Part shown: positions 29,672 through 61,587 of the stretch, in pieces | Layout of the letters: each line of letters begins with the position of its first letter | Numbering within the stretch: the stretch's first letter is position 1 | NCBI GenBank assembly: GCA_934385225.1 | Contig: CAKRPQ010000001.1 | Location: 4,876-68,875, forward strand | DNA length: 64,000 nucleotides | Direction: 5' to 3' | DNA from: an uncultured Eubacteriales bacterium | GTDB lineage: Bacteria; Bacillota; Clostridia; Oscillospirales; CAG-272 | Translations under genes and position numbers: made by a program | Notes under the pieces: model-generated | What the model saw: only the letters and a program-made list of their open reading frames with translations | The model's database searches: none | Told to the model about the DNA's origin: nothing

Positions 29672-29820
29672 TGGGCATTATGCACAATATTTAATATCCG
29701 TCTTTGTGAACTTTTCACCAAAACGAGAGAAAAAGGGGCAAAAAAGGAACACAAAATGGCGATTTTGTGAACATAAAGTGTGCATTTAATGTACGAAGCG
29801 GAAAATTCGCGAGATTTTTT

Positions 29821-30220
29821 TATAGTCGGGGCGGTTGTGCTTGGATTATCGCAAACGACACCCCCGACTTTGCCTCCCCTGTGTACAAGGGGAGGCGGCG
29901 GAGGAGCGCAAGCCCTCCGACGGAAGGGTTGTCCGTCTATCTGCTGACGTGTGGTCTTGCAGTCTCAATCGACGCCCTTTCTTTTGACGTAGCAGGCGCA
30001 AAAGAAAGGGCTTAGCCCAAAGAAAAGCGCCGAGAACATTTCGCCTCTCCATCGTGCTTCGGGAAGAACCGTAGGTTCTTCATAGTCGGGGCGGTTGAAC
30101 TTGGACTAAATCGGACTTCACCCCCGACTTTGCCGTCTGCGGACGGCGACAAGGGCTATGCGCCCTTGACCGCACCGCCTTTTGCAAAAGGCGGGCGAAA
30201 ACTCTCAATCAAAGGCTGGA
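29821..30220. repeat. hairpin-module array A
   Basis: Module order is b'-c-d-e-f-g-a-b'-h-i-j-k (see findings). Examples: AGTCGGGG...CCCCGACT at 29824-29869 and again at about 30084-30130; GCCGTCTGCGGACGGC at 30132-30147. Confidence 0.85.
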
Positions 30221-30226
30221 GGTCAC

Positions 30227-33946: not shown

Positions 33947-35257
33947 TCAGCTCTCCGCGTCGGGTTCTTCCGTCAGATCTGTCTGCATATCGTCTGTTTT
34001 ATTCGGCATTTTCAGAACCTTGACCGTATCTCTCTTGTAATATTTGGGTGCGGCGTCCGCCTTTTCGTTGAGTTTTACGCGCACAAGACCCGCTATCGGG
34101 TTTATCTCGGTGACGTTGCCCACGCCGTCCTCTGTTCTGACGAGCGCACCGACGGGCGGCGTTACGCGCAGCTCCGCCCGGTACGACTCATGCTCGTAGC
34201 GCAGGCAACACATAAGTCTGCCGCAATTGCCCGATATTTTTGCGGAATTGAGCGAAAGTCCCTGCTCCTTTGCCATTTTTATCGACACCTGAACGAAATC
34301 CGAGAGAAATCTCGCGCAGCACAGCGGTCTGCCGCACGCGCCGAGACCTCCCATCAGCTTCGATTCGTCTCTTATGCCTATCTGGCGCAGCTCTATGCGC
34401 GTTCTGAACACGGACGCAAGGTCCTTTACAAGCTCTCTGAAATCCACTCTGCCCGCGCTTGTGAAGTAGAAGAGGAGCTTGCTGTTATCGAACGTATATT
34501 CAACATCGACGAGCTTCATATCAAGCCCGTGCGCCTCAATCTTGCGTAAACCGATAACGAAAGCCTCTTTTTCCTTCTTCTTGTTCTCCTCGGCGCATTT
34601 TTTATCCTCCTCCGTCGCCTGTCTTATGACGGGACGAAGCGGCTTTACTATATCGCTCTCGCGAACGCTCTTGTTTCCCGCCGCGACGCAGCCGTATTCA
34701 ATGCCGCGCGCGGTTTCGACGACGGCATATGCGCCCGTCTTTATTTTAAGCTCGCCGGGGTCAAAATAATACACCTTTCCCGACGGCTTGAAGCGCACAC
34801 CTATAACGGTGACAAGCGACGCGGGATCGGTTTCCTCTTCCCGCGGCATGGTATTTTCGGGAGTGACGCCGAATGCGGCACCGTCCTCGCGGAGATTTTC
34901 GTTTATGCTTATATTTATGTTTTCCCCGAAAGCGGAAATTTCGGGCGCGAAAGCGGGAGCATTTTCTTTTTCGCTTTCATTTTCGTTTGCGCCTGTGTTT
35001 ACGTTTTCGGCGCGTTTTTCCCTGCGCTGAAAATCGCGGTCGCCGAAATTGCGGTTTTTTCTCGGTCTGAAATCGGTGTCGCCGTTCTGCGCGCCGTCGT
35101 TTCTTCTGCGTTCCGCGCCGTTCTGCGCGCCATTCGGCTCACCGTCCTTTTTCGGGCGGCAGTACGGGCGCTTTCTGCCGTAATGCGCGCTTCTGCCCTC
35201 TCCGCTTTTGTTTCTGTCCTGTGCGCCGTCGGCGCGTGTGTTCTTTTCGCTGTCCAT
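33947..35257 (-). CDS. ricT: PSP1-domain protein RicT/YaaT with a ~147-aa basic low-complexity N-terminal extension
   Basis: The PSP1 core is VRFKPSGKVYYFD...DVEYTFDNSKLLFYFTSAGRVDFRELVKDL...CGRPLCCARFL...CGRLMCCLRYE. It lies directly downstream of holB, as in Bacillus. Confidence 0.85.
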   Translation of the reverse strand: MDSEKNTRADGAQDRNKSGEGRSAHYGRKRPYCRPKKDGEPNGAQNGAERRRNDGAQNGDTDFRPRKNRNFGDRDFQRREKRAENVNTGANENESEKENAPAFAPEISAFGENINISINENLREDGAAFGVTPENTMPREEETDPASLVTVIGVRFKPSGKVYYFDPGELKIKTGAYAVVETARGIEYGCVAAGNKSVRESDIVKPLRPVIRQATEEDKKCAEENKKKEKEAFVIGLRKIEAHGLDMKLVDVEYTFDNSKLLFYFTSAGRVDFRELVKDLASVFRTRIELRQIGIRDESKLMGGLGACGRPLCCARFLSDFVQVSIKMAKEQGLSLNSAKISGNCGRLMCCLRYEHESYRAELRVTPPVGALVRTEDGVGNVTEINPIAGLVRVKLNEKADAAPKYYKRDTVKVLKMPNKTDDMQTDLTEEPDAES

Positions 35258-37675: not shown

Positions 37676-37774
37676 ATTTTTTCCTTTCAGAGAGGTTTTC
37701 GAGTTGTTGAAAATTCTTTTTCAAAGCAATTTGTCATTTTGTTTAATCAAATGAAGCCGACTCCCGCTTTTTCT

Positions 37775-38056
37775 CCCATGCGACAGGCGCTCTCTCTTTT
37801 TAGCCTCCCTTGTGTAAAGGGAGGTGGATTGCCACGAAGTGGCAAGACGGAGGGATTGTTTCTACACCGCCGTGAAGATATGCAGTCCCGTTTTCCACTT
37901 TTTCTTTGACACCACAGGCGCAAAGATAAAAGCATAGATGCCTTCGGCATCTCACAAAAAGAAACGCCGAGAACATTTCGCCGTCTGCGGACGGCGACAA
38001 AAGGCTCTGCCTTTTGAATCCGCAAGCCTTTGAAAAGGCTTGACCTAAACTTTATA
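37775..38056. repeat. hairpin-module array B
   Basis: Contains GCCTCCCTTGTGTAAAGGGAGG, GCCGTCTGCGGACGGC (37980-37995), AAAAGGCTCTGCCTTTT (within 37996-38020) and CAAGCCTTTGAAAAGGCTTG (38023-38042). It lies downstream of the radical SAM gene. Confidence 0.85.
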
Positions 38057-38071
38057 ATCGTTTTTTGCCTG

Positions 38072-41599: not shown

Positions 41600-42275
41600 T
41601 TCGGGCTTCACCGCGACTTCGCCTTTTGTGCTGTATGTCGGGAAGAATCCGCAAGGATTCTTCATAGGTGGAGCAGTTTATACTTGGATTTTATTAGACT
41701 TCACCTCCACCTTCGCCTTTTGTGCTGTATGTCGGGAAGAATCCGCAAGGATTCTTCATAGGTGGAGCAGTTTATACTTGGATTTTATTAGACTTCACCT
41801 CCACCTTCGCCTTCCCCGGTGGCGGGAAGAGACTTTCCATAAAGGAAAGTCAGACCGCGATAGCGGTGGATGAGGTGTTGCGAACACTTTTAGCGGAACT
41901 TCACGTCGTGTTTAGGCTCCCTTGTGTAAAGGGAGCTGTCACCGCAGGTGACTGAGGGATTGTCTATCCGCCGAGGTGCAGTCGTGCAGCACCATTTAAC
42001 GCCTTTTCTTTTGGTGTTGCAGGCACAAAAGAAAAGGCTTTGCGAAAAGAAAAGTGCCGCAAGAGGGTTTCGCTCTCTGCGGAGAGCGACAAGGGCTATG
42101 CGCCCTTGACCGCACTCGCCTTTTGAAAAAGGCGAGACCCAAAACTTTCGACAAAGGCGAGGTGAAAACTTTCAACAAAGGCTTGACCTAAACTTTCACT
42201 AACTTTTTTGCCTCCCCTTTATTCTTTGATAAAGGGGAGGTGGCACGAGCGCAGCGAGTGACGGTAGGGTTCTCC
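41600..42275. repeat. hairpin-module array C
   Basis: Module order is (a-b)x2, c, d/e, f (42001-42038), g, h' (42072-42087), i (42088-42110), j (42115-42136), k, plus an extra CCTCCCCTTTAT...ATAAAGGGGAGG hairpin at about 42211-42240. It lies between convergent pepF and spoIIE. Confidence 0.85.
41617..41814 (+). repeat. 94-bp tandem duplication inside array C
   Basis: 41617-41710 and 41711-41804 are identical when read base by base. The first ~10 nt of a third unit follow. The duplication produces twin ORFs at 41628 and 41722. Confidence 0.9.
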
Positions 42276-45222: not shown

Positions 45223-48200
45223 TTAAACGCTTTTTATGTCCGTCTCGATATCCACAGCCTCGCCGAGCGGAAGAGAGTAGATGCACACGCGCGACGGCTC
45301 CTCGCCGAAGATTTCGCGCACAGCCAGTCTGTAATACGAGAGCTGGGTTGCGTGCCTCTCGGTCAGCTTCTTTTTCGCGAGCCGAACGTTACGCTTTTCG
45401 GCTTCCGTCAGATAGTCGGTCTTATAGTCACAGAGGACGAGAGTGCCGTCCGCTTTGCGGAAAACGAGGTCGATAACGCCCTGAACAACGACTGTTTCGC
45501 CGCCGAGAAGTTTTTCACGCGCGGGGTTCTCCGTGAAAAGAGACGCGGCAAGGCGCAGATTGAACCGCTGTTCCCTGTAAATCTCGCGCGAGGCGGAAAG
45601 CTCCGCGAAAAAGCTGCTCGTAAAGAACCGCGAAAGCTGTTCCTCGTCGATAAGCTTCGCGATTTCGGGCGACAGGAAGCCGAGCGCGCAAAGTCGCTCT
45701 TTCTCCGCTCTGACACCGTGCTTTTTAGCGTTCTCAAAGTCGCAGAACTGCATAAACGTATGAGTCGCCGTTCCGTGCTCCGCTCCGCCCGCCCTTTCCT
45801 CCGTCGGGACAAGGAACGCGGGGAGCGTGCGGAGAGTTACCTCCTCTTTTTCTGTCGGAACTCCGTCCGCCTCGTCGTCAAGAACGCCGGGATACAGCTT
45901 CGACACCGACATTTTGGCGGGCAGCTCCGAAAGATATGAATACGGATACTCGAAATCAAAGCGTTTTTCAAGCTCCGCCGCAATCGCCGCCTCGCGCTCC
46001 GCGCTAGCGGCGTTCGTTTTGCCCGCCGCCTTTTTGCCGTCGTATTTCACTTCTTTCGGAATATCGCCCGCCTCCGCCGAGAAGAATTCGAAACAGTCGG
46101 ACGGGCGGTCGCAACCGTCACCGAGCGCGGTCAGAATGAATTTAAGGAAGCTGCGGCAGGACATAAATGTGTATATATCGGACTTCTCCGCGCCCTTTAC
46201 TATCGACTCGACCGTGTTTGCGCTCACGCCCGCGCTTATGTAGAGCCTTTCCCTTGCACGCGTCAGCGCAACGTAGAGGACGCGCATACGCTCCTCGACC
46301 TCGCTGTCGCGGTTTTTGCCGTCAATAATGTTCTTTATCGGATTTACGCGCTTTACAAAGCCGGTTTCCTCGCCGAATGACATTCCCACGCCTATATCGC
46401 GGTCAAACGAGACAAGCCCCGACGCGCCCTTCGGGAAGAAATCGCTTTCTGCGGACGCGATAAAGCATATCGGAAATTCAAGTCCCTTTGACGCGTGTAT
46501 AGTCATAACATCGACGGCGTTTTCGGCGCTTTCCGCGGCGGGCGGCTCTACCTTTCCGCCCGATTCGATTATCCCGTCGATGTAGTTTATAAAGCCGTAA
46601 AGGCCGCCCGCGCCCGTCTTTTCGTAAGTGCAGGCGTAATCGTAGAGCATAAGCAGATTTGCGCGTCTCGCCTCCGCGTTCGGTGCGGATTCCTCGTCGC
46701 CGCCCGCAAAAGACATCATTCTCGTGTCGGAATAGATAAAGTGCAGGAGCCTGTCCGTTCCGAGCCGTCTCGCCTCGCGGCGGTAAAGCGCGAGTTTTTC
46801 GGTAAAATACCCTATTTTGCTTCGCAGAGCCTCGGTCACGTTTTCGGGGTTCTCCGCTGTCGCAAGAAGATCGTCGTAGAGGGAAATTCCCGAATTTGCT
46901 CCCCGCAATCGCGCAAGGTCGTCGATATCAAAGCCGTAGAGCGGCGAGCGCAGCACGCCCGCGAGATAGACGTCCTTTCGCGGGTTGTCGATGACTTTGA
47001 TAAGCGAGAGCGCAAGAAGCACCTCGGCGTTCTCAAAATATCTGACGCTTGTGCGCGACACCGTCGGAATGCCCGCGTCGCGGAGGAATTTTGCGAAAAC
47101 GTCGGCTTTTTTGTTCGTTCCCGTAAGCACGGCAATATCCCGCGGCTCTATGCGGCGCATGACGCCGCCGTCCTCACATAGCTCGCGCCCGTCCGAAAGG
47201 AGTCTTATTATCTCGGACGCGATGTACCGCTCTTCAAGATTTTCGTTTATCTTTTTCGCCCGCGCCTTATCTTCCTCCGTGCCGTTTCTCGGCGCGGCGC
47301 ATTTTACGAGCGCGCCGAGTTTTACCTTTGTAAATTCGCCGTCCTTTTTTACCGTCCGCTTTCCGAAGCGGAGATCGTCCTCCGCCGTATAGCCGACGCT
47401 GTTTCTGCCGCCGCGGAAAAGCGCGCCGCAGACCCTGTTCGTAAAATCTATTATCGGCTTGTCGCACCTGAAATTGTGCGACATATAAATGCTCGCGTCG
47501 TAGCTTTTTCCCGCCTTATCGAGCGGCGGAAACGTATTTTTGTATCCCGCAAATGTCGACGGATTCGCGCCGCGGAAGCGGTATATGCTCTGCTTTATAT
47601 CGCCGACCATAAAACGCCCGCCCGCTCTCGCTATCGACGCGAATATCAGATCCTGAACGGCGTCGGTGTCCTGATATTCGTCAATGTATATCTCGTCGAA
47701 CCTGTTTGCGTACTCACGCGCGAGAGGCGTCGGAAAGCCGTCGCCGTCGACAAAAAGTTTCAGTGCAAAGTGCTTGCAATCGCTGAAATCGCACCCCATA
47801 ACCGCGAGTTTCGCCGCCGAAAAGCGCTCCCTGAACTCCGAAAGCACCTTATACGCCCATTCGACGTTCCGCGCGTTTTCGAGAAGAGCCGCGCGCATAC
47901 CGTCTTCGCGTGCGCGGAAGTATCCCTCGCGGAATTTTCCGTATTCGTCTTTCAGTTTGTTCCGCTCGCCCTCGTGATATTCGAGCAGCTCCGATTTTAC
48001 CCTTTCCCTGCCGACGGGCGGCACGGAAAAGTTCGAAAAGAGCCTCACCGCTTCGTTCATATCGTCTGCCGCTATCGCCTTTTTCACGTCCGTGAAGTGC
48101 TTATACAGATAGGCGTATGTGTTCTTGTACTTTTTCTGCTCCTTATCGCCGAGCGTTTCGATTATTCCGAGCGCGTCCCCGAAAACGGAGGCGAAATGTT

Positions 48201-48929
48201 CGACAAACGGCACCGTTATCTTTTTAAGCTCGCCGCCCGCCACGCCGCAAAGGAACGGTTTCTCCGCGTCCGCGCGCATATTTTTCGCGTTCTTCGCGAG
48301 AAATTCGGTGAAATCGGCGTACCCCGAGAGCCTGTCGTACAGCGAAAGAAGTTCCGCTGCGGCATAACTCTCCCCTCTCGAATCGAGAAAAATGTCCATA
48401 AACTCCCGAAACGAGCCGCCTCCGTTCTCATTGTCGTTGTCGTTTTCGTTTTCGTTTTCGCCGCCCCGATACTTTTCGTAAAAGTCCTCAATGACGCTCT
48501 CCATCGTCTTTTCGCGCATAGGAACGAGCAGGGTGTCGTCAAGCACGCGCAGAGACGGCGGAAGTCCGAGAACGTCGAAATTCTGCTTCACTGCGCCGTA
48601 GTAGAAAGAGTCTATCGTCGATATTGACGCGCTTCCGAGGCGCACCATCTGCTCGGCGAGGTGTCTGTTCGACGGATTTTCGGCAAGAGCCTTTCCGAGA
48701 GCCTTTGAAATCTTCTTTTTCAGATCCGCCGCCGATGCTTTTGTGAACGTGACCACGAGAAAACGGCTTATGTCGGCGGGATTTTCCTCGTCTGTCAGCC
48801 GCCTTATTATGCGCTCGGTAAGCGTTGCCGTTTTTCCCGACCCCGCCGCCGCGGAGACGAGAACGGTCTTTCCGCGCACGTCGATAGCGCTTCTCTGGGC
48901 GTCGGTCCATTTTGTTTCGCTTCCGCTCA

Positions 48930-48930
<1 letters not shown>
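45223..48930 (-). CDS. addA: ATP-dependent helicase/nuclease subunit A
   Basis: UvrD-type Walker A AAAGSGKT, helicase motifs throughout, and a C-terminal RecB-type nuclease (GVIDLVF...DYKTD). The ATG shares one base with the addB stop (TAATG). The AGGAGG RBS lies inside the addB tail. Confidence 0.93.
48430..48459 (-). repeat. hexanucleotide repeat encoding ENENENDNDNEN in AddA
   Basis: The plus strand reads ATTGTC GTTGTC GTTTTC GTTTTC GTTTTC. Confidence 0.9.
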
Positions 48931-52286
<3,356 letters not shown>

Positions 52287-56759: not shown

Positions 56760-56993
56760 ATGACGAGAAACGAAAAAAATTATCTGAAAAGCTCTGAATG
56801 TGAAGGTGAAAAGCCGAGGTACTGCCGTGTTTGCGGCGAAATTATACCGAAAGGCTGTTACTATGTGAATTTCAGAGGAAAAAGCGTATGTTGCACCTGC
56901 ACATTCGAAATGAAGTCGGAGGAAATAATTCGGATTTGCGAACTCAAATCGCCCGAGAAAACGCCTGACAGGCACGGATTTACGCATGAATGA
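56760..56993 (+). CDS. small Cys-rich (zinc-ribbon-like) protein
   Basis: 77 aa with CRVCGEIIPKGC...CCTC. AAGGAAAGGA RBS. It overlaps the next gene by 8 nt. Confidence 0.5.
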   Translation: MTRNEKNYLKSSECEGEKPRYCRVCGEIIPKGCYYVNFRGKSVCCTCTFEMKSEEIIRICELKSPEKTPDRHGFTHE

Positions 56994-57390
56994 TTTCCTC
57001 GGGGTATCTGCCGTGCAAAAAGAAAAGACAAAGACCGTCGAATTTCTCGAAAGTTACAGAACGAACAAGCGAATGCTCGATATGATGCGCTACGAAAAGG
57101 ATTATTTTTCGGACAGAGAGCGCGGCACGGAGGCGGAAAAGGACGATTTTCTGCTGCTTCCGGGCGGCGACGAGGTTCTGCTGAAAAACAGAATGTACAC
57201 CGTGCGCCGCTTCATTATGAGCCTTGGCGACAGCGACCAGAAAACGCTGCTTTTTTACCACTACATAAAAGGATTTTCGGTTGAAAAGTGTGCGGAGCTG
57301 ATGAACATAGGCAGAACGAGCGCATTCCGCCTGAAAAAGAAGGCACTCGAATCGGCGAAGAACGTGTACGACGAGAAATTCACCGCATAA
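56986..57390 (+). CDS. sigma-70 region-4-like / ArpU-type small transcriptional activator
   Basis: 134 aa. The C-terminus QKTLLFYHYIKGFSVEKCAELMNIGRTSAFRLKKKALE is a region-4 HTH. The N-terminus LESYRTNKRMLDMMRYEK resembles phage/ICE late activators. Confidence 0.65.
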   Translation: MNDFLGVSAVQKEKTKTVEFLESYRTNKRMLDMMRYEKDYFSDRERGTEAEKDDFLLLPGGDEVLLKNRMYTVRRFIMSLGDSDQKTLLFYHYIKGFSVEKCAELMNIGRTSAFRLKKKALESAKNVYDEKFTA

Positions 57391-57402: not shown

Positions 57403-57434
57403 AAAAAAACAGGGACGAAAGTCCCTGTTTTCTT
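57403..57434 (+). terminator. rho-independent terminator (GNRA tetraloop)
   Basis: A-run, then CAGGGAC (57410-57416), loop GAAA, GTCCCTG (57421-57427), then TTTTCTTGTT. Confidence 0.65.
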
Positions 57435-57454
57435 GTTAAACGACCGTGAGGTTG

Positions 57455-58135
57455 TTTTTTAGCCTCCCTTGCCATAAAAAGTCGGTAAAAGTTTTGGTCA
57501 ACCTTTTTCAAAAGGGTGCAGATTCAAAAGGCAGAGCCTTTTGTCGCTCTCCGCAGAGAGCTAAGTCGGGGGTGAAAAAAGCGATGACCTCAATTCTACC
57601 GCCCCGACTATGAAAACCCTACGGTTTTTCCCGAAGCACGATGTGGAGGAGAAATGTTCTCGGCGCTTTCTTTTTGTGAGATGCCGAAGGCATCTATACT
57701 TTTATCTTTGCGCCTGTCGCATCAAAAGAAAGGGCGTTATTGGATACTATGCAACCGCACGGCTACATTAGCCTCCCGTTGTACTTCGGGAAAAACCGTA
57801 GGGTTTTCATAGGTGGAGCAGTTTACACCCTCTATTATTGCAGACCTCACCTCCACCTTTGCCTCCCCTGTGTAAGGGGAGGTGGCGGAGGTGCGCAAGC
57901 CCTCCGACGGAAGGGTTGTCCGTCTGCGTGCCGCCGTGAAGTCGTGCAGCACTCATTAACGCTCTTTCTCTTGATGCGACAGGCGCAAGAGAAAGAGCTT
58001 CGCAGAAAGAGAAGCGCCGAGAATGTTTCGCCGTCTGCGGACGGCGACAAGGGCTATGCGCCCTTGACCGCACTCGCCTTTTGTAAAAGGCGAGACGAAA
58101 ACTTTCAGTCAACGGCGAAGCTAAACTTTCACCCG
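57455..58135. repeat. hairpin-module array D (two sub-arrays in inverted orientation)
   Basis: The left half (about 57480-57770) carries modules k,j,i,h,b',a,g,f as reverse complements. The right half (about 57785-58135) carries a,b,c,d,e,f,g,h,i,j,k forward. Confidence 0.85.
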
Positions 58136-58139
58136 TCCC

Positions 58140-58403
58140 TCATATCTGTTTATGAACGCTCTTATATTCATCATAATACTTATAATACGGGCAGCCTCTC
58201 ACGCTCCGCGAAACAAACGCAAGCATTTCGTCCTCATCAAGCGACATCATACAGCGATAGCAGTCCTCGTCCTCATCGTAATCGTAATATTCGCATTCCT
58301 CGCAGCAGGTACTTCTTTTCCGTGCGGACGGCAGCTCTTTTTCCTCTTTTTCGCGCTCCGACTTCGGCACATAATGCGTTTTATCCCATGCTCCGTCGCT
58401 CAT
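58140..58403 (-). CDS. small acidic Cys-rich protein (DUF6472-like, tentative)
   Basis: 87 aa with CCEECEYYDYDEDEDCYRC...LDEDE...CPYY. It overlaps the GtrA-like gene by 4 nt. Confidence 0.6.
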   Translation of the reverse strand: MSDGAWDKTHYVPKSEREKEEKELPSARKRSTCCEECEYYDYDEDEDCYRCMMSLDEDEMLAFVSRSVRGCPYYKYYDEYKSVHKQI

Positions 58404-58831: not shown

Positions 58832-60256
58832 TTACCCACCGATTTTGTAGGTTGTTCCCTCGCGCGAATCGACGAGAGTTACGCCCTTATCCGAAAGATA
58901 CTTGCGTATTTCGTCCGCTCTCGCGAAATTCTTCGCCTTTTTCGCCTCTGCGCGCTCCGCAATAAGGCTTTCTATCTCCTTTGCAAAGTCCTCGTCGATT
59001 TCGGGCGTGCTCGGCTCTGCGTTTTTCAGTTTTTCGGCGTGCGCGACAAGGTCGAGCGACAGAACGCGGTCAAAATCGGCGACAAGCGCGAGCTTTGTCG
59101 CGTCACCCGCGCCCGATTTAAGCACGTCGTAGAGAGCGGTCACGGCGAGAGACGTATTGAGGTCGTTATCGAGTGCGTCGGTAAAGCCTTTTTTAAGCTC
59201 TGCGAACTTCGCCCCGTCGACTTCCCCGTCCTCTTTAAGCGTCGCGATCTTCTTTATGAGTTTATCGTATGCGACGGCGGCATTGTCGAGATTTTCGTAG
59301 CTGAAAACGAGCGACTTGCGGTAATGCGAGCCGAGGCAGAAGAAGCGGTACACCATCGGGTCGTATCCTTTTTCTTCGAGGAGAGAGACGGTGAGGAACT
59401 CGCCCTTTGACTTCGACATTTTGCCGTTTGTAGTGTTGAGGTGATGGACGTGGAACCAATAGTTGCACCACTTATGACCGAGATAAGCCTCGGACTGCGC
59501 GATCTCGTTCGTATGATGCGGGAAAGCGTTGTCGATGCCGCCGCAGTGAATATCGAGATATTCGCCGAGGTGTTTCATCGAGATGCAGGAACATTCGATG
59601 TGCCAGCCGGGGTAGCCGACGCCCCAGGGCGAATCCCATTTGAGCGCCTGGTCTTCGAACTTCGATTTTGTGAACCAGAGGACGAAATCGTTCTTGTTTT
59701 TCTTATTGTTATCGGCTTCGACGCCATCTCTGACGCCGACGGCAAGGTCTTCCTCGTCGATGTTGCCGAAAACGTAGTATTCTTTCAGCTTTGAGGTGTC
59801 GAAATAGACGTTTCCGCCCGCAATGTAGGCGTATCCCTTGTCGAGGAGCGCGGAAATGACCTTTATGAAGTCGTCAATGCAGTGTGTTGCGGGTTCAACG
59901 ACGTCGGGGCGCTTTATGCCGAGCTTTTCGCAGTCGGCGAAGAACGCGTCGGTGTAGAATTTTGCTATTTCCATAACGGTTTTGTGTTCGCGCTTTGCGC
60001 CTTTGAGCATTTTGTCCTCGCCCTCGTCGGCGTCGGAGGTCAGATGACCGACGTCGGTGATGTTCATAACGCGTTTAACGTCGTAACCGATGTAGCGGAG
60101 GTATTTTTCGAGTACGTCCTCCATGATGTAGGAGCGGAGGTTGCCTATGTGCGCGAAGTGATAGACAGTCGGACCGCAGGTGTACATTTTGACCTTGCCC
60201 GGCTCGCGCGGAATAAATTCTTCTCTTTTTCTTGAAAGTGAATTGTAGATGTACAT
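58832..60256 (-). CDS. cysS: cysteinyl-tRNA synthetase
   Basis: Start re-called to MYIYNSLSRKREEF (ATG 60256, AAGGAG RBS). HIGH is present as HFAHIGN and KMSKS is present. Confidence 0.93.
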   Translation of the reverse strand: MYIYNSLSRKREEFIPREPGKVKMYTCGPTVYHFAHIGNLRSYIMEDVLEKYLRYIGYDVKRVMNITDVGHLTSDADEGEDKMLKGAKREHKTVMEIAKFYTDAFFADCEKLGIKRPDVVEPATHCIDDFIKVISALLDKGYAYIAGGNVYFDTSKLKEYYVFGNIDEEDLAVGVRDGVEADNNKKNKNDFVLWFTKSKFEDQALKWDSPWGVGYPGWHIECSCISMKHLGEYLDIHCGGIDNAFPHHTNEIAQSEAYLGHKWCNYWFHVHHLNTTNGKMSKSKGEFLTVSLLEEKGYDPMVYRFFCLGSHYRKSLVFSYENLDNAAVAYDKLIKKIATLKEDGEVDGAKFAELKKGFTDALDNDLNTSLAVTALYDVLKSGAGDATKLALVADFDRVLSLDLVAHAEKLKNAEPSTPEIDEDFAKEIESLIAERAEAKKAKNFARADEIRKYLSDKGVTLVDSREGTTYKIGG

Positions 60257-60299
60257 TATATGTCTCCTTTGTTTTAAGAACGTTGTGTTGAGATTTGGG

Positions 60300-60855
60300 G
60301 TGCCGTTTGTTGAAAAGTGAACAACCCTTCCGTCGGAGGGCTTGCGCACCTCCGCCACCTCCCCTTACACATGGGAGGCTGAAAAACGGGGTGAAAGTTT
60401 CGCTCGCCGTTTATTAAAAGTTTTCGTCTCGCCTTTTTCAAAAGGCGAGTGCAGTCAAGGGCGCATAGCCCTTGTCGCCGCTCGCAAGCGGCGAAATGTT
60501 CTCGGCGTTTCTTTTTGTGAGATGCCGAAGGCATCTATGCTTTTATCTTTACGCCTGTCGCATCAAAGAAAAAGCGGAAAACGGGACTGCACGACTTCGC
60601 GTCAGCGGAAAAACAATCCCTCAGTCACCTATCTGCCGAGGTGAAGTCTTGCAGTGCCTATTAACGCCCTTTCTTTTGATGCGACAGGCGCAAAAGAAAG
60701 GGCTTTGCCCAAAGAAAAGCGCCGAAAAGAAGTTTCGCCGTCTGCGGACGGCGACCGCCGTCGTCGGCGGCTCACGCAAACTTTTGAAAAAGTTTGATCA
60801 AAACTTTTAACAAGCGGCGAGACGAAAACTTTTAACAAACGGCGAAACTTTCGTC
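60300..60855. repeat. hairpin-module array E, between cysE and cysS
   Basis: Reverse-orientation modules d,c then k,j (60428-60449), i (60454-60476), h'' (60477-60492), g,f,e,d. These are followed by forward e, f (60666-60703), g, h (60737-60752), an extra CCGCCGTCGTCGGCGG hairpin, and k-like AAAACTTTT repeats. Confidence 0.85.
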
Positions 60856-60858
60856 GTT

Positions 60859-61587
60859 TTACTTCCTTTCGAGCTTCGCTATCCGCTCTTCGAGCCGTTT
60901 TATCTCCGCCGCAACGGGGTCGGGTATGTGTATCTGGTCAAGATCGGCATTCTCGCCGACTTTCTTTCCGTATCTGCGCACGACTTTCGCGGGTATTCCC
61001 ACAGCCGTACTGTCGGGCGGTATCTCCGTCAGCACAACCGCGCCCGCCGCAACTTTTGAATTATCGCCTATCTTCATCGGTCCCAGCACTTTCGCGCCCG
61101 CGCCTATCATGACACCGTTTCCGAGCGTCGGGTGTCTCTTGCCGACGTCCTTACCCGTTCCGCCGAGCGTTACGCCCTGATATACCGTACAGTCGTCACC
61201 TATCTCAGTCGTCTCGCCTATGACAACAGCCGCGCCGTGGTCGATGAAAAACCGCTTCCCTATCGTCGCGCCCGGGTGTATCTCTATTCCCGTGAAAAAC
61301 TTCGCAAGCTGGCTTATCGCCCGCGCCCCGAAATAGTGTTTTCCGAGGTAGAGTTTATGCGAAACCCTATACGCAAGGATCGCGTGCAGTCCCGAATAGA
61401 GGAAAACCACCTCCGCGTCGCTCTTTGCGGCAGGGTCGCGCTCGCGAAAAGTCTTTACCTCCTCGCGCACGTCGTCAAACGGCTTCGACATTCTGTCACA
61501 CGCACGAACCGCGCGTTTCATTATTCTTTTTCCGACGGCTTTTGCGTCTCTCGCAAGCTCCGCGCCGTCAAACATTATTTTTTTCAT
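60859..61587 (-). CDS. cysE: serine O-acetyltransferase
   Basis: Start re-called to MKKIMFDG (ATG 61587). Hexapeptide-repeat core GIEIHPGATIGKRFFIDHG...VIGETTEIGDDCTVYQGVTLGG. The C-terminus is a coiled-coil tail. Confidence 0.9.
   Translation of the reverse strand: MKKIMFDGAELARDAKAVGKRIMKRAVRACDRMSKPFDDVREEVKTFRERDPAAKSDAEVVFLYSGLHAILAYRVSHKLYLGKHYFGARAISQLAKFFTGIEIHPGATIGKRFFIDHGAAVVIGETTEIGDDCTVYQGVTLGGTGKDVGKRHPTLGNGVMIGAGAKVLGPMKIGDNSKVAAGAVVLTEIPPDSTAVGIPAKVVRRYGKKVGENADLDQIHIPDPVAAEIKRLEERIAKLERK

Follow-up and report, generated by a model that had tools for sequence, protein, structure and literature searches.

Five intergenic regions in a 64,000-nt stretch of the genome of an uncultured Eubacteriales bacterium (contig CAKRPQ010000001.1, positions 4,876 to 68,875; the whole stretch is called the window in the following) contain arrays of small hairpins that recur with the same loops and with different stems. 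This raises the question which kind of element preserves its base pairing while its stem sequences vary. The hairpins were found to be modules of a single repeat family. Its arrays are insertions that have accumulated immediately behind stop codons and always point the same way relative to the upstream gene, its stems are under a pairing constraint and show no tolerance for wobble pairs, and its modules are exchanged between copies. The best explanation, to which we give about an even chance of being correct, is a lineage-specific, non-coding, interspersed and mosaic family of palindromic repeats in uncultured gut Clostridia (Oscillospiraceae-like), which would resemble the repetitive extragenic palindromes (REPs) and bacterial interspersed mosaic elements (BIMEs), the neisserial intergenic mosaic elements (NIMEs), or the BOX elements.

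Anatomy of the repeat family and pairing of its stems

When the repeat regions were compared with the entire window by blastn (word size 7), one family with seven core units emerged, which are confined to the intergenic regions 29790-30225 (array E30), 37757-38070 (E38), 41600-42260 (E42), 57440-58140 (E57r and E58), and about 60258-60858 (E60r and E60f). This amounts to 7 units per 64 kb, or about one unit per 9 kb, and none of them lies inside a gene. The conserved core of about 83 nt is composed of the three hairpins h, i, and j, which are situated side by side, and a tail. Hairpin h has a stem of 8 bp and the loop TGCG, hairpin i has a stem of 7-8 bp and loops of mostly 3 nt, the top of hairpin j carries CTTTTGAAAAAG, and the tail 3' of j is AAAACTTT. 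Alignment of the seven copies yielded the module order optional 5' modules, f hairpin, GCGCCGAGAAnnTTTC, h, i, j, and tail, with one to three AAAACTTTY tail repeats per copy. The optional 5' modules are f, a CCTCCC hairpin, a GAAGAACC hairpin, and an ATAG-tagged long hairpin. Two inserts are also optional, namely a GATGCC-TTCG-GGCATC hairpin and a stretch of about 75 nt, in which the GAAGAACC hairpin is followed by the ATAG-tagged long hairpin. A search with nhmmer revealed that the 5' modules vary by subgroup, whereas the core is widespread. Some copies lack i or h, and in others the loop of i or of j encloses additional hairpins.

More than 190 further units were found in metagenome-assembled genomes (MAGs), gut metagenomes, and IMG/VR contigs. 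Scanning a genome collection with a pattern in which the four inner stem bases were unspecified in both arms of h retrieved 9 copies from 7 MAGs; 8 of the 9 were fully paired, and the h stems GCTCGT, GCTCGC, GCCCTC, and GCGCTC do not occur in the window. The covariance model R1, which was built from a gapless alignment of 36 sequences, had at least 157 matches in the family-positive loci and at least 44 more in the rest of the metagenome contigs and in viral contigs of IMG/VR; the copy totals, which also draw on a metagenome scan for j plus tail, are lower bounds. The family is abundant and widespread in human-gut and other metagenomes, and its loops and linkers are conserved across genomes of very different G+C content. 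Proteins identical to those of the window occur in human-gut assemblies, and the closest CysS homologs belong to MAGs named 'Eubacteriales', 'Clostridia', or 'Ruminococcaceae/Oscillospiraceae bacterium', which makes the host an uncultured member of the gut Clostridia. The family is previously uncatalogued in Rfam and in the searched literature: Rfam gave no match at the gathering score, nor with the relaxed thresholds E <= 1 (45 kb of loci) and E <= 10 (an 801-nt element stretch), and literature searches by keywords and literal sequence strings retrieved no description. A blastn comparison of the core with plasmid and phage collections also gave no match.

The initial annotation of the window had proposed that the two arms of each stem change together while the loops are retained, and all module coordinates and sequences that it quoted were correct. 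Hairpin h has the sequence GCCGTC-TGCG-GACGGC at 30132-30147, 37980-37995, 58030-58045, and 60737-60752, the stem GCTCTC/GAGAGC at 42072-42087 and, reversed, at 57546-57561, and the stem GCCGCT/AGCGGC, reversed, at 60477-60492. The stem of i is AAGGGC/GCCCTT at 30148-30170 (i of the E30 core is at 30150-30168), 42088-42110, 58046-58068, and 60454-60476, and AAAAGGC/GCCTTTT at 37996-38020 and 57521-57545. For j the variants are CCGCC/GGCGG (30175-30194), CTCGCC/GGCGAG (42115-42136, 58073-58094, and 60428-60449), and CAAGCC/GGCTTG (38023-38042). Hairpin f is present at 29974-30011 (plus strand, arms GCCCTTTCTTTTG and CAAAAGAAAGGGC), 42001-42038, 57961-57998, and 60666-60703; it has a pyrimidine/purine stem of 12-13 bp, which covaries in 26 of 26 full-length copies examined.

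The additional copies supported the view that the changes in both arms reflect a constraint on pairing. Up to five types of pairs occur at one position, and in the gapless alignment of 36 units 20 of the 24 stem pairs have changed on both sides. When Watson-Crick and G:U pairs were counted as paired, 95.9% of the cells were paired in a gapless MAFFT alignment of 36 units that was not fitted to the structure (75.5% after shuffling), and the covariation score was 0.558 compared to 0.177 after shuffling and 0.05-0.14 for slid partners. In a model-aligned set of 150 units, the respective values were 91.2% versus 67.4% paired cells and scores of 0.476 versus 0.140, with 0.02-0.095 for slid partners; 93% of the cells were paired in h, about 93% in i, and 99% in j. 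The window contains an internal control, since the pattern GC....TGCG....GC occurs 15 times, and the arms are complementary in 7 of 7 cases inside the repeats and in 0 of 8 elsewhere. The f-h-i-j core of E58 (57950-58125) is far more stable than dinucleotide-shuffled controls, none of 200 shuffles reaching its folding energy (z = -5.5 as RNA of the plus strand, z = -6.5 as DNA of the minus strand).

Two or three clonal subfamilies, which would have produced the same impression of covariation, do not explain the pattern, because 52 distinct stems were found among 88 complete copies of h, 65 among 113 of i, and 49 among 143 of j. Unpaired changes in a single arm are confined to about 6% of the stem cells. 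The earlier conclusion that the modules are neither a peptide nor a linear protein-binding motif has thus been strengthened by the extra copies. The statement that the h loop is always TGCG is true within the window, but in the whole family TGCG is present in 73 of the 88 complete h hairpins. Two further pairings were considered and dropped. A closing helix or cloverleaf that would extend j (model positions 48-49 with 71-72) is paired in 45% of the cells, and a helix between the head (TTTCG) and the tail (CGAAA) clashes with the covarying TCG/CGA base of h; variants with a CCG...CGG base of h leave the tail unchanged, and head-tail pairing was rejected for this reason.

The structural reading in the initial annotation had left the choice between RNA and single-stranded DNA open. 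The structure itself is confirmed, and the similar numbers of G:T and A:C and the mostly 3-nt loops of i favor a palindrome that is constrained at the level of DNA. The stems h, i, and j of the 150 units contain 2913 Watson-Crick pairs, 44 G:T, 51 A:C, and 92 other mismatches. After de-replication at 85% identity the numbers of G:T and A:C are 38 and 36, and they are 10 and 11 in the MAFFT alignment. Since each A:C corresponds to a G:U on the complementary strand, neither of the strands shows a tolerance for wobble pairs. The spectrum of mismatches agrees with mutation that has passed no filter and has a transition/transversion ratio near 2. In structured RNAs and terminators, G:U normally far outnumbers A:C. 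Taken together with the loop sizes, the mismatch statistics suggest that the stems are constrained to form a perfect DNA inverted repeat and would not belong to a classical structured RNA.

Insertion after stop codons and exchange of modules

The genes next to the repeats were called with a codon log-odds gene caller, which was checked on the NCBIfam-supported genes of the window. At distances of up to 30 nt from the tail, the neighbor was the 3' end of an opposite-strand gene in 36 of 40 cases. Up to 400 nt from the tail, 87 such 3' ends were counted versus 31 other neighbors, and 3 of 150 units were inside gene calls. All six tails that point outward in the window lie next to stop codons, namely those of ttcA (30227), a radical-SAM gene (38072), spoIIE (42283), the gene ending at 57390, the DUF6472 gene (58140), and cysE (60859). 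Each of two convergent genes carries its own unit, which explains the frequent head-to-head pairs and indicates that the orientation tracks the gene and not the direction of replication. The 119 neighboring proteins match 187 Pfam families, none of which is enriched. The neighboring genes are unrelated housekeeping genes, and the most frequent families are generic ABC transporter domains, found in at most five members. An association with one gene family or pathway, as expected for a leader or a riboswitch-like element, is ruled out by this diversity.

Two simple functions at gene ends were rejected. Reverse-complemented, 73% of the tails provide a TAA or TGA just after AAAACTT, but an overlap of the unit with the actual stop codon was seen in just about 6 of 87 cases, so that the tail does not supply the stop codon as a rule. 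The modules are also not intrinsic terminators, because the bases behind h, i, and j are C, AAnC, and GAC/GCG, respectively, and most hairpins lack a U-tract. A scan with a terminator consensus flagged occasional modules only, i.e., h' of E60f and, in the sense direction of the gene, the optional GATGCC hairpin.

The junction of cysE and cysS reveals how the arrays have arisen. Comparison with homologs placed the true start of cysS at the ATG at 60256, which is preceded by AAAGGAGA; the longest cysS open reading frame (ORF) begins with a GTG at 60358 and runs into the repeat. The distance to the cysE stop codon (60859-60861) is 602 nt (60257..60858) in the window versus 1-8 nt in four relatives, the CysS proteins of which are 82-84% identical, and therefore the arrays are insertions. 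The 602 nt are made up of a head-to-head pair, E60r on the minus strand and E60f on the plus strand. The core of E60r (60415..60499, minus strand, 78.7 bits with R1) has its tail directed to the 5' end of cysS, and its j-tail holds the sequence TTGAAA-N17-TTTAAT directed at cysS, which could be a promoter that drives cysS after the operon was split by the insertion. The core of E60f (60730..60809, plus strand, 75.5 bits) contains the i variant CGCCGTC/GGCGGC, and its tail repeats extend to the cysE stop codon. At the position of E58, two of three relatives examined (L180 and L183) have a canonical intrinsic terminator directly after the DUF6472 stop codon. In L180, a diverged i/j-like copy is present further downstream of this terminator, and the covariance model detected no copy in 30 kb of these relatives.

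Orthologous loci of close relatives revealed that the units change much faster than their surroundings. For one pair of loci (L031/L069), the divergence is 17.9% in the unit versus 1.9% in the flanks (p = 1e-9), and for a second pair (L061/L125) it is 12.0% versus 1.7% (p = 1.6e-5). In both pairs every change keeps the pairing, and loops and spacers have been replaced as well. Paired changes between close relatives thus come as replacements of whole modules and not as stepwise compensatory mutations. The incoming i/j variant of L069 is also present at other loci, and the replacement of blocks by variants from elsewhere means that modules are exchanged between dispersed copies. This exchange, which presumably runs via recombination or gene conversion through the conserved linkers, explains the mosaic pattern that had been noted in the window, a part of which has therefore been inherited in blocks.

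The genes encoded in the window include those for SpoIIE, PepF, TtcA, CysE, and CysS, and the remaining arrays differ in module content and gene context. Array E30 (29790..30225, plus strand) lies between oppA (start 29549) and the ttcA stop codon. It contains, in this order, an ATAG-tagged long hairpin, a CCTCCCC hairpin, f, a second insert of GAAGAACC plus ATAG hairpin, h, i, j, and the tail (AAAACTCT, at about 30200), which faces the ttcA stop codon at a distance of 20 nt. Its core (30125..30207, plus strand) scores 81.6 bits with R1, and the array is identical in 10 contigs from the same species. E38 (37757..38070, plus strand) is located between a trhP-like gene (start 37675) and the stop codon of the radical-SAM gene; it has the optional GATGCC-TTCG-GGCATC hairpin (37937-37951) and a core with 92.0 bits (37973..38055, plus strand). 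E42 (41600..42260, plus strand) is found between the convergent genes pepF (end 41520) and spoIIE, and its core (42065..42150, plus strand, 73.3 bits) is followed by three tail repeats at 42142-42197. The two arrays E57r (57440..57775, minus strand) and E58 (57776..58140, plus strand) are arranged head to head. The former is downstream of a gene at 56986-57390 and has a core with 86.8 bits (57486..57568, minus strand). The core of the latter (58023..58107, plus strand) scores 78.0 bits, and its tail ends 8 nt from the stop codon of the DUF6472 gene (58140-58403, minus strand). Between the gene ending at 57390 and E57r, a canonical bidirectional intrinsic terminator is present at 57403-57434 (AAAAAAACAGGGAC-GAAA-GTCCCTGTTTTCTT).

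Several further features of the modules were observed. The ATAG module is present at 29822-29867, 30082-30127, 41664-41710, 41758-41804, and 57809-57856 on the plus strand and at 57566-57611 on the minus strand. It consists of an invariant ATAG immediately 5' of a long-range stem, which encloses about 30 nt and covaries among the copies (TCGGGG/CCCCGA versus GTGGAG/CTCCAC). E42 contains a perfect (100% identical) tandem duplication of 94 nt (41617-41710 and 41711-41804), which comprises a GAAGAATCC-GCAA-GGATTCTTC hairpin, ATAG, and a GTGGAG...CTCCAC long hairpin. The identity indicates a very recent duplication within the pepF-spoIIE array. Two to four reiterations of the 3' end of the unit, which is about 24 nt long and comprises AAAACTTTY and the right arm of j, are present at 42142-42197, 58099-58130, and 60778-60852, and they differ in the variant of the j arm (GGCGAG, GGCTTG, or GGCGAA). 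They may be remnants of former units or may have arisen by slippage. A different kind of repeat was seen within long minus-strand ORFs (33947-35257, 45223-48930, and 48930-52286), namely runs of TTTTCG/GTTTTC hexamers at 34881-35012 and 48416-49002, which read (GAAAAC)n on the coding strand and would encode Glu-Asn repeats.

Some of the copies outside of the window occur in unusual surroundings. Contigs that are classed as viral carry the family, too. One of them (L146, IMG/VR, 700-1280) has three tandem units of about 140 nt, which consist of i and j only and have different j stems in neighboring units, and another (L160, 4100-4198) has an i-j copy between two co-directional genes, the tail of which is overlapped by the upstream TAA. 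In two homologous metagenomic loci (L026, 1917-2009, and L127, 5587-5679), a tRNA-Sec gene (68 bits) is flanked on either side by a unit that faces outward. Many short-read contigs end in or beside repeats (L001-L009, L134-L139, and L188-L194), and four Logan contigs end 63 nt past the DUF6472 gene. The family thus breaks assemblies systematically and possibly also gives rise to chimeras; L187, which switches its locus exactly at a module boundary, may be such an assembly chimera.

Possible origin and function of the arrays

Each array is assembled from small palindromic modules, with h-i-j-tail as the commonest core. If the family is a mosaic palindromic repeat as proposed above, the stems would be constrained to remain perfect inverted repeats, which can fold as hairpins or cruciforms, and the constraint would most likely act on DNA in its single-stranded or supercoiled state. 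A putative trans-acting protein that spreads or maintains the family would make sequence-specific contacts with the invariant loops and linkers (TCGC..TGCG..GCGA, CTTTTGAAAAAG, and AAAACTTT). Transcribed as part of the 3' untranslated region (UTR) of the upstream gene, the hairpins would probably double as 3' barriers or stabilizers, as REPs do. A more specific version, which we regard as unlikely, is that the three-hairpin unit is the substrate of an undescribed hairpin-specific DNA enzyme. This enzyme would read loops and linkers on folded single-stranded DNA, install modules beside stop codons in a transcription-linked orientation, and swap modules. That it would be a functional analog of the RAYT/HUH proteins or of a structure-specific recombinase is an equally tentative proposal. 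If true, it would amount to a cassette-like system with hypervariable stems that marks gene 3' ends. The discovery of such an enzyme or function would also explain how junctions like that of cysE and cysS tolerate hairpin insertions of 600 nt.

Several observations weigh against a mobile repeat family. Look-ups of the ttcA and DUF6472 sites retrieved no empty and filled alleles within a species. Neither target-site duplications nor clean terminal inverted repeats could be delimited, and at the cysE-cysS insertion no duplication is recognizable; the head AAAAGnnTTTCG and the tail CGAAAACTTTT have a loose inverted similarity only. The 64-kb window and the flanks of the other loci contain no transposase, RAYT, or other mobilizing candidate, and the 25 families of Pfam that were listed for the 119 neighboring proteins include no transposase. 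The two halves of the head-to-head pairs E57r/E58 and E60r/E60f differ in the stems of h, i, and j, unlike those of REPINs. In addition, the preference for DNA over RNA is based on mismatch statistics and loop sizes, and the orientation bias toward gene ends is just what a host-selected function in the 3'-UTR would predict.

The main rival is an RNA element of mRNA 3' ends that serves the host and has its stems selected at the RNA level, an explanation that we deem possible and clearly less probable than a mosaic repeat. The reverse complement (AAAGUUUU, then j', i', and h') would be transcribed after the stop codon and could be a barrier to 3'-exonucleases, a factor-dependent terminator or one without a U-tract, or a platform for an RNA-binding protein. 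The fixed orientation to the upstream gene, the start of the unit 0-30 nt past the stop codon, and the separate units of convergent genes fit this idea well, as do the very stable folding and the conservation of loops and linkers despite very different G+C contents, and ttcA, the radical-SAM gene, and the DUF6472 gene bear an array where two relatives show a canonical terminator. However, an RNA should exhibit an excess of G:U over A:C on one of the strands, which is not the case, 3-nt loops dominate in hairpin i, and most hairpins are not followed by a U-tract. The array of one window gene is already preceded by a canonical terminator (57403-57434), about a quarter of the units face a 5' end, and the genes do not need the arrays, because these are absent from the orthologous sites of relatives. 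A second way in which RNA could be involved is that each unit is an independent small RNA (sRNA) gene in plus orientation, giving a multicopy sRNA antisense to gene 3' ends. UNCG-type tetraloops (C-UGCG-G and C-UUCG-G) occur on the plus strand only, and the -35-like hexamer TTGAAA in j and the T/A-rich tail could form an outward promoter, e.g., TTGAAA-17-TATAAT at 38030-38058. The density of about 7 units per 64 kb is too high for sRNA genes, though, the unit is not consistently bracketed by promoter and terminator, G:U is not enriched on the plus strand, the module composition is variable, and Rfam contains no relative, which together make this explanation very improbable.

Alternatively, the arrays might be structural DNA sites or protein-binding sites of the host chromosome and not selfish mobile DNA, e.g., insulators or sites for gyrase, IHF, or a nucleoid protein; binding of the latter three has been proposed for BIMEs. 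Strand-symmetric perfect palindromes with short loops are suited for cruciform extrusion, the sites are between transcription units, especially convergent ones, and they contain conserved sequence blocks. A symmetric site should not have a strong orientation bias, however, and the patchy, lineage-specific distribution, the array inserted within the cysE-cysS operon, and the differences in module content among the copies also speak against it, so that we regard this function as improbable. As far-fetched as the sRNA genes is the assumption that the paired changes have arisen without any constraint, by chance, from a few clonal subfamilies, or by functionless template switching within hairpins (quasipalindrome correction). 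It would agree with the block replacement of modules between close relatives and with the mutation-like mismatch spectrum. This explanation has been largely refuted by the roughly 50 or more distinct stems per hairpin, the far lower scores of slid and shuffled controls, and the internal control (7 of 7 versus 0 of 8); moreover, neutral palindrome correction does not explain why loops and linkers are more conserved than stems. The more than 190 copies with about 50 or more stem variants per hairpin, in which pairing is strictly kept with no tolerance for G:U, are a clean natural dataset for the separation of DNA-level from RNA-level constraint.

Comparison with known repeat systems

Identity with a structured RNA of the Rfam type was rejected, based on the lack of an Rfam match, of a strand-specific tolerance for G:U, and of an association with a gene family. 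The attC sites of integrons are also located immediately 3' of ORFs in a fixed orientation and conserve structure while the sequence varies, and they act as folded single-stranded DNA and have Watson-Crick pairs by construction. In contrast to attC sites, the repeats have no RYYYAAC/GTTRRRY core sites and no integrase context, they form three separate hairpins instead of one long bulged hairpin, and their neighbors are housekeeping genes and not cassettes. Without core sites, a single bulged hairpin, or a cassette array beside intI, identity with attC was rejected.

The bcr1 element of the Bacillus cereus group is an intergenic repeat of about 150 nt, which resembles miniature inverted-repeat transposable elements (MITEs), has a conserved secondary structure, is often found near gene 3' ends, and is transcribed. 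It has defined ends and a TTTAT target duplication. Repeats of this type have been listed (PMC3184786). The family described here is likewise an intergenic repeat of a Firmicute with conserved structure near gene 3' ends, but neither a target duplication nor defined termini were found, and its composition is mosaic. The presence or absence at orthologous sites that characterizes MITEs was observed at the cysE-cysS junction (602 versus 1-8 nt in four relatives). Modularity is shared with the BOX elements of Streptococcus pneumoniae and the NIMEs of Neisseria, which are non-coding repeats between genes that combine variable numbers of a few kinds of boxes, are predicted to form stable stem-loops, and are shuffled between copies. 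As far as can be judged from their descriptions, with which the family was compared, it is a modular intergenic hairpin repeat like these two; it differs in that each module is a perfect mini-palindrome with a hypervariable stem, and there is no apparent sequence relationship.

The comparison with the REPs and BIMEs of Enterobacteria and Pseudomonas, where REPINs are mobilized by RAYT transposases, revealed both similarities and clear differences. The repeats do not qualify as REPs in the strict sense, because GTAG or CGTC tags are lacking on h, i, and j, the dimers have unlike halves, and a RAYT was not detected in the 64-kb window and the locus flanks. The core is preceded by ..TTTCG upstream of h and followed by ..AAAACTTT after j, and only another module, the long hairpin, has the related tag ATAG, which resembles the GTAG tag of classical REPs. 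One palindrome is replaced by three different hairpins with conserved loops, a dimer does not consist of near-identical mirror halves like a REPIN, and the orientation to the upstream gene is much stricter. On the other hand, the family shares with REPs and BIMEs the short G+C-rich palindromes, the high copy number, the intergenic location mostly downstream of ORFs, the mosaics with other motifs, the frequent inverted dimers, and a plausible transcription as 3' hairpins. REPs are mostly located downstream of ORFs, between unidirectional or convergent genes, and the survey from which this is known does not mention the Firmicutes, to which the host of the window belongs (Di Nocera et al., 2013, PMC3733652). 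The discovery of a dedicated enzyme for the repeats of the window, or of a function at gene 3' ends, would extend REP/RAYT-type biology, or a new analog of it, to the Firmicutes.

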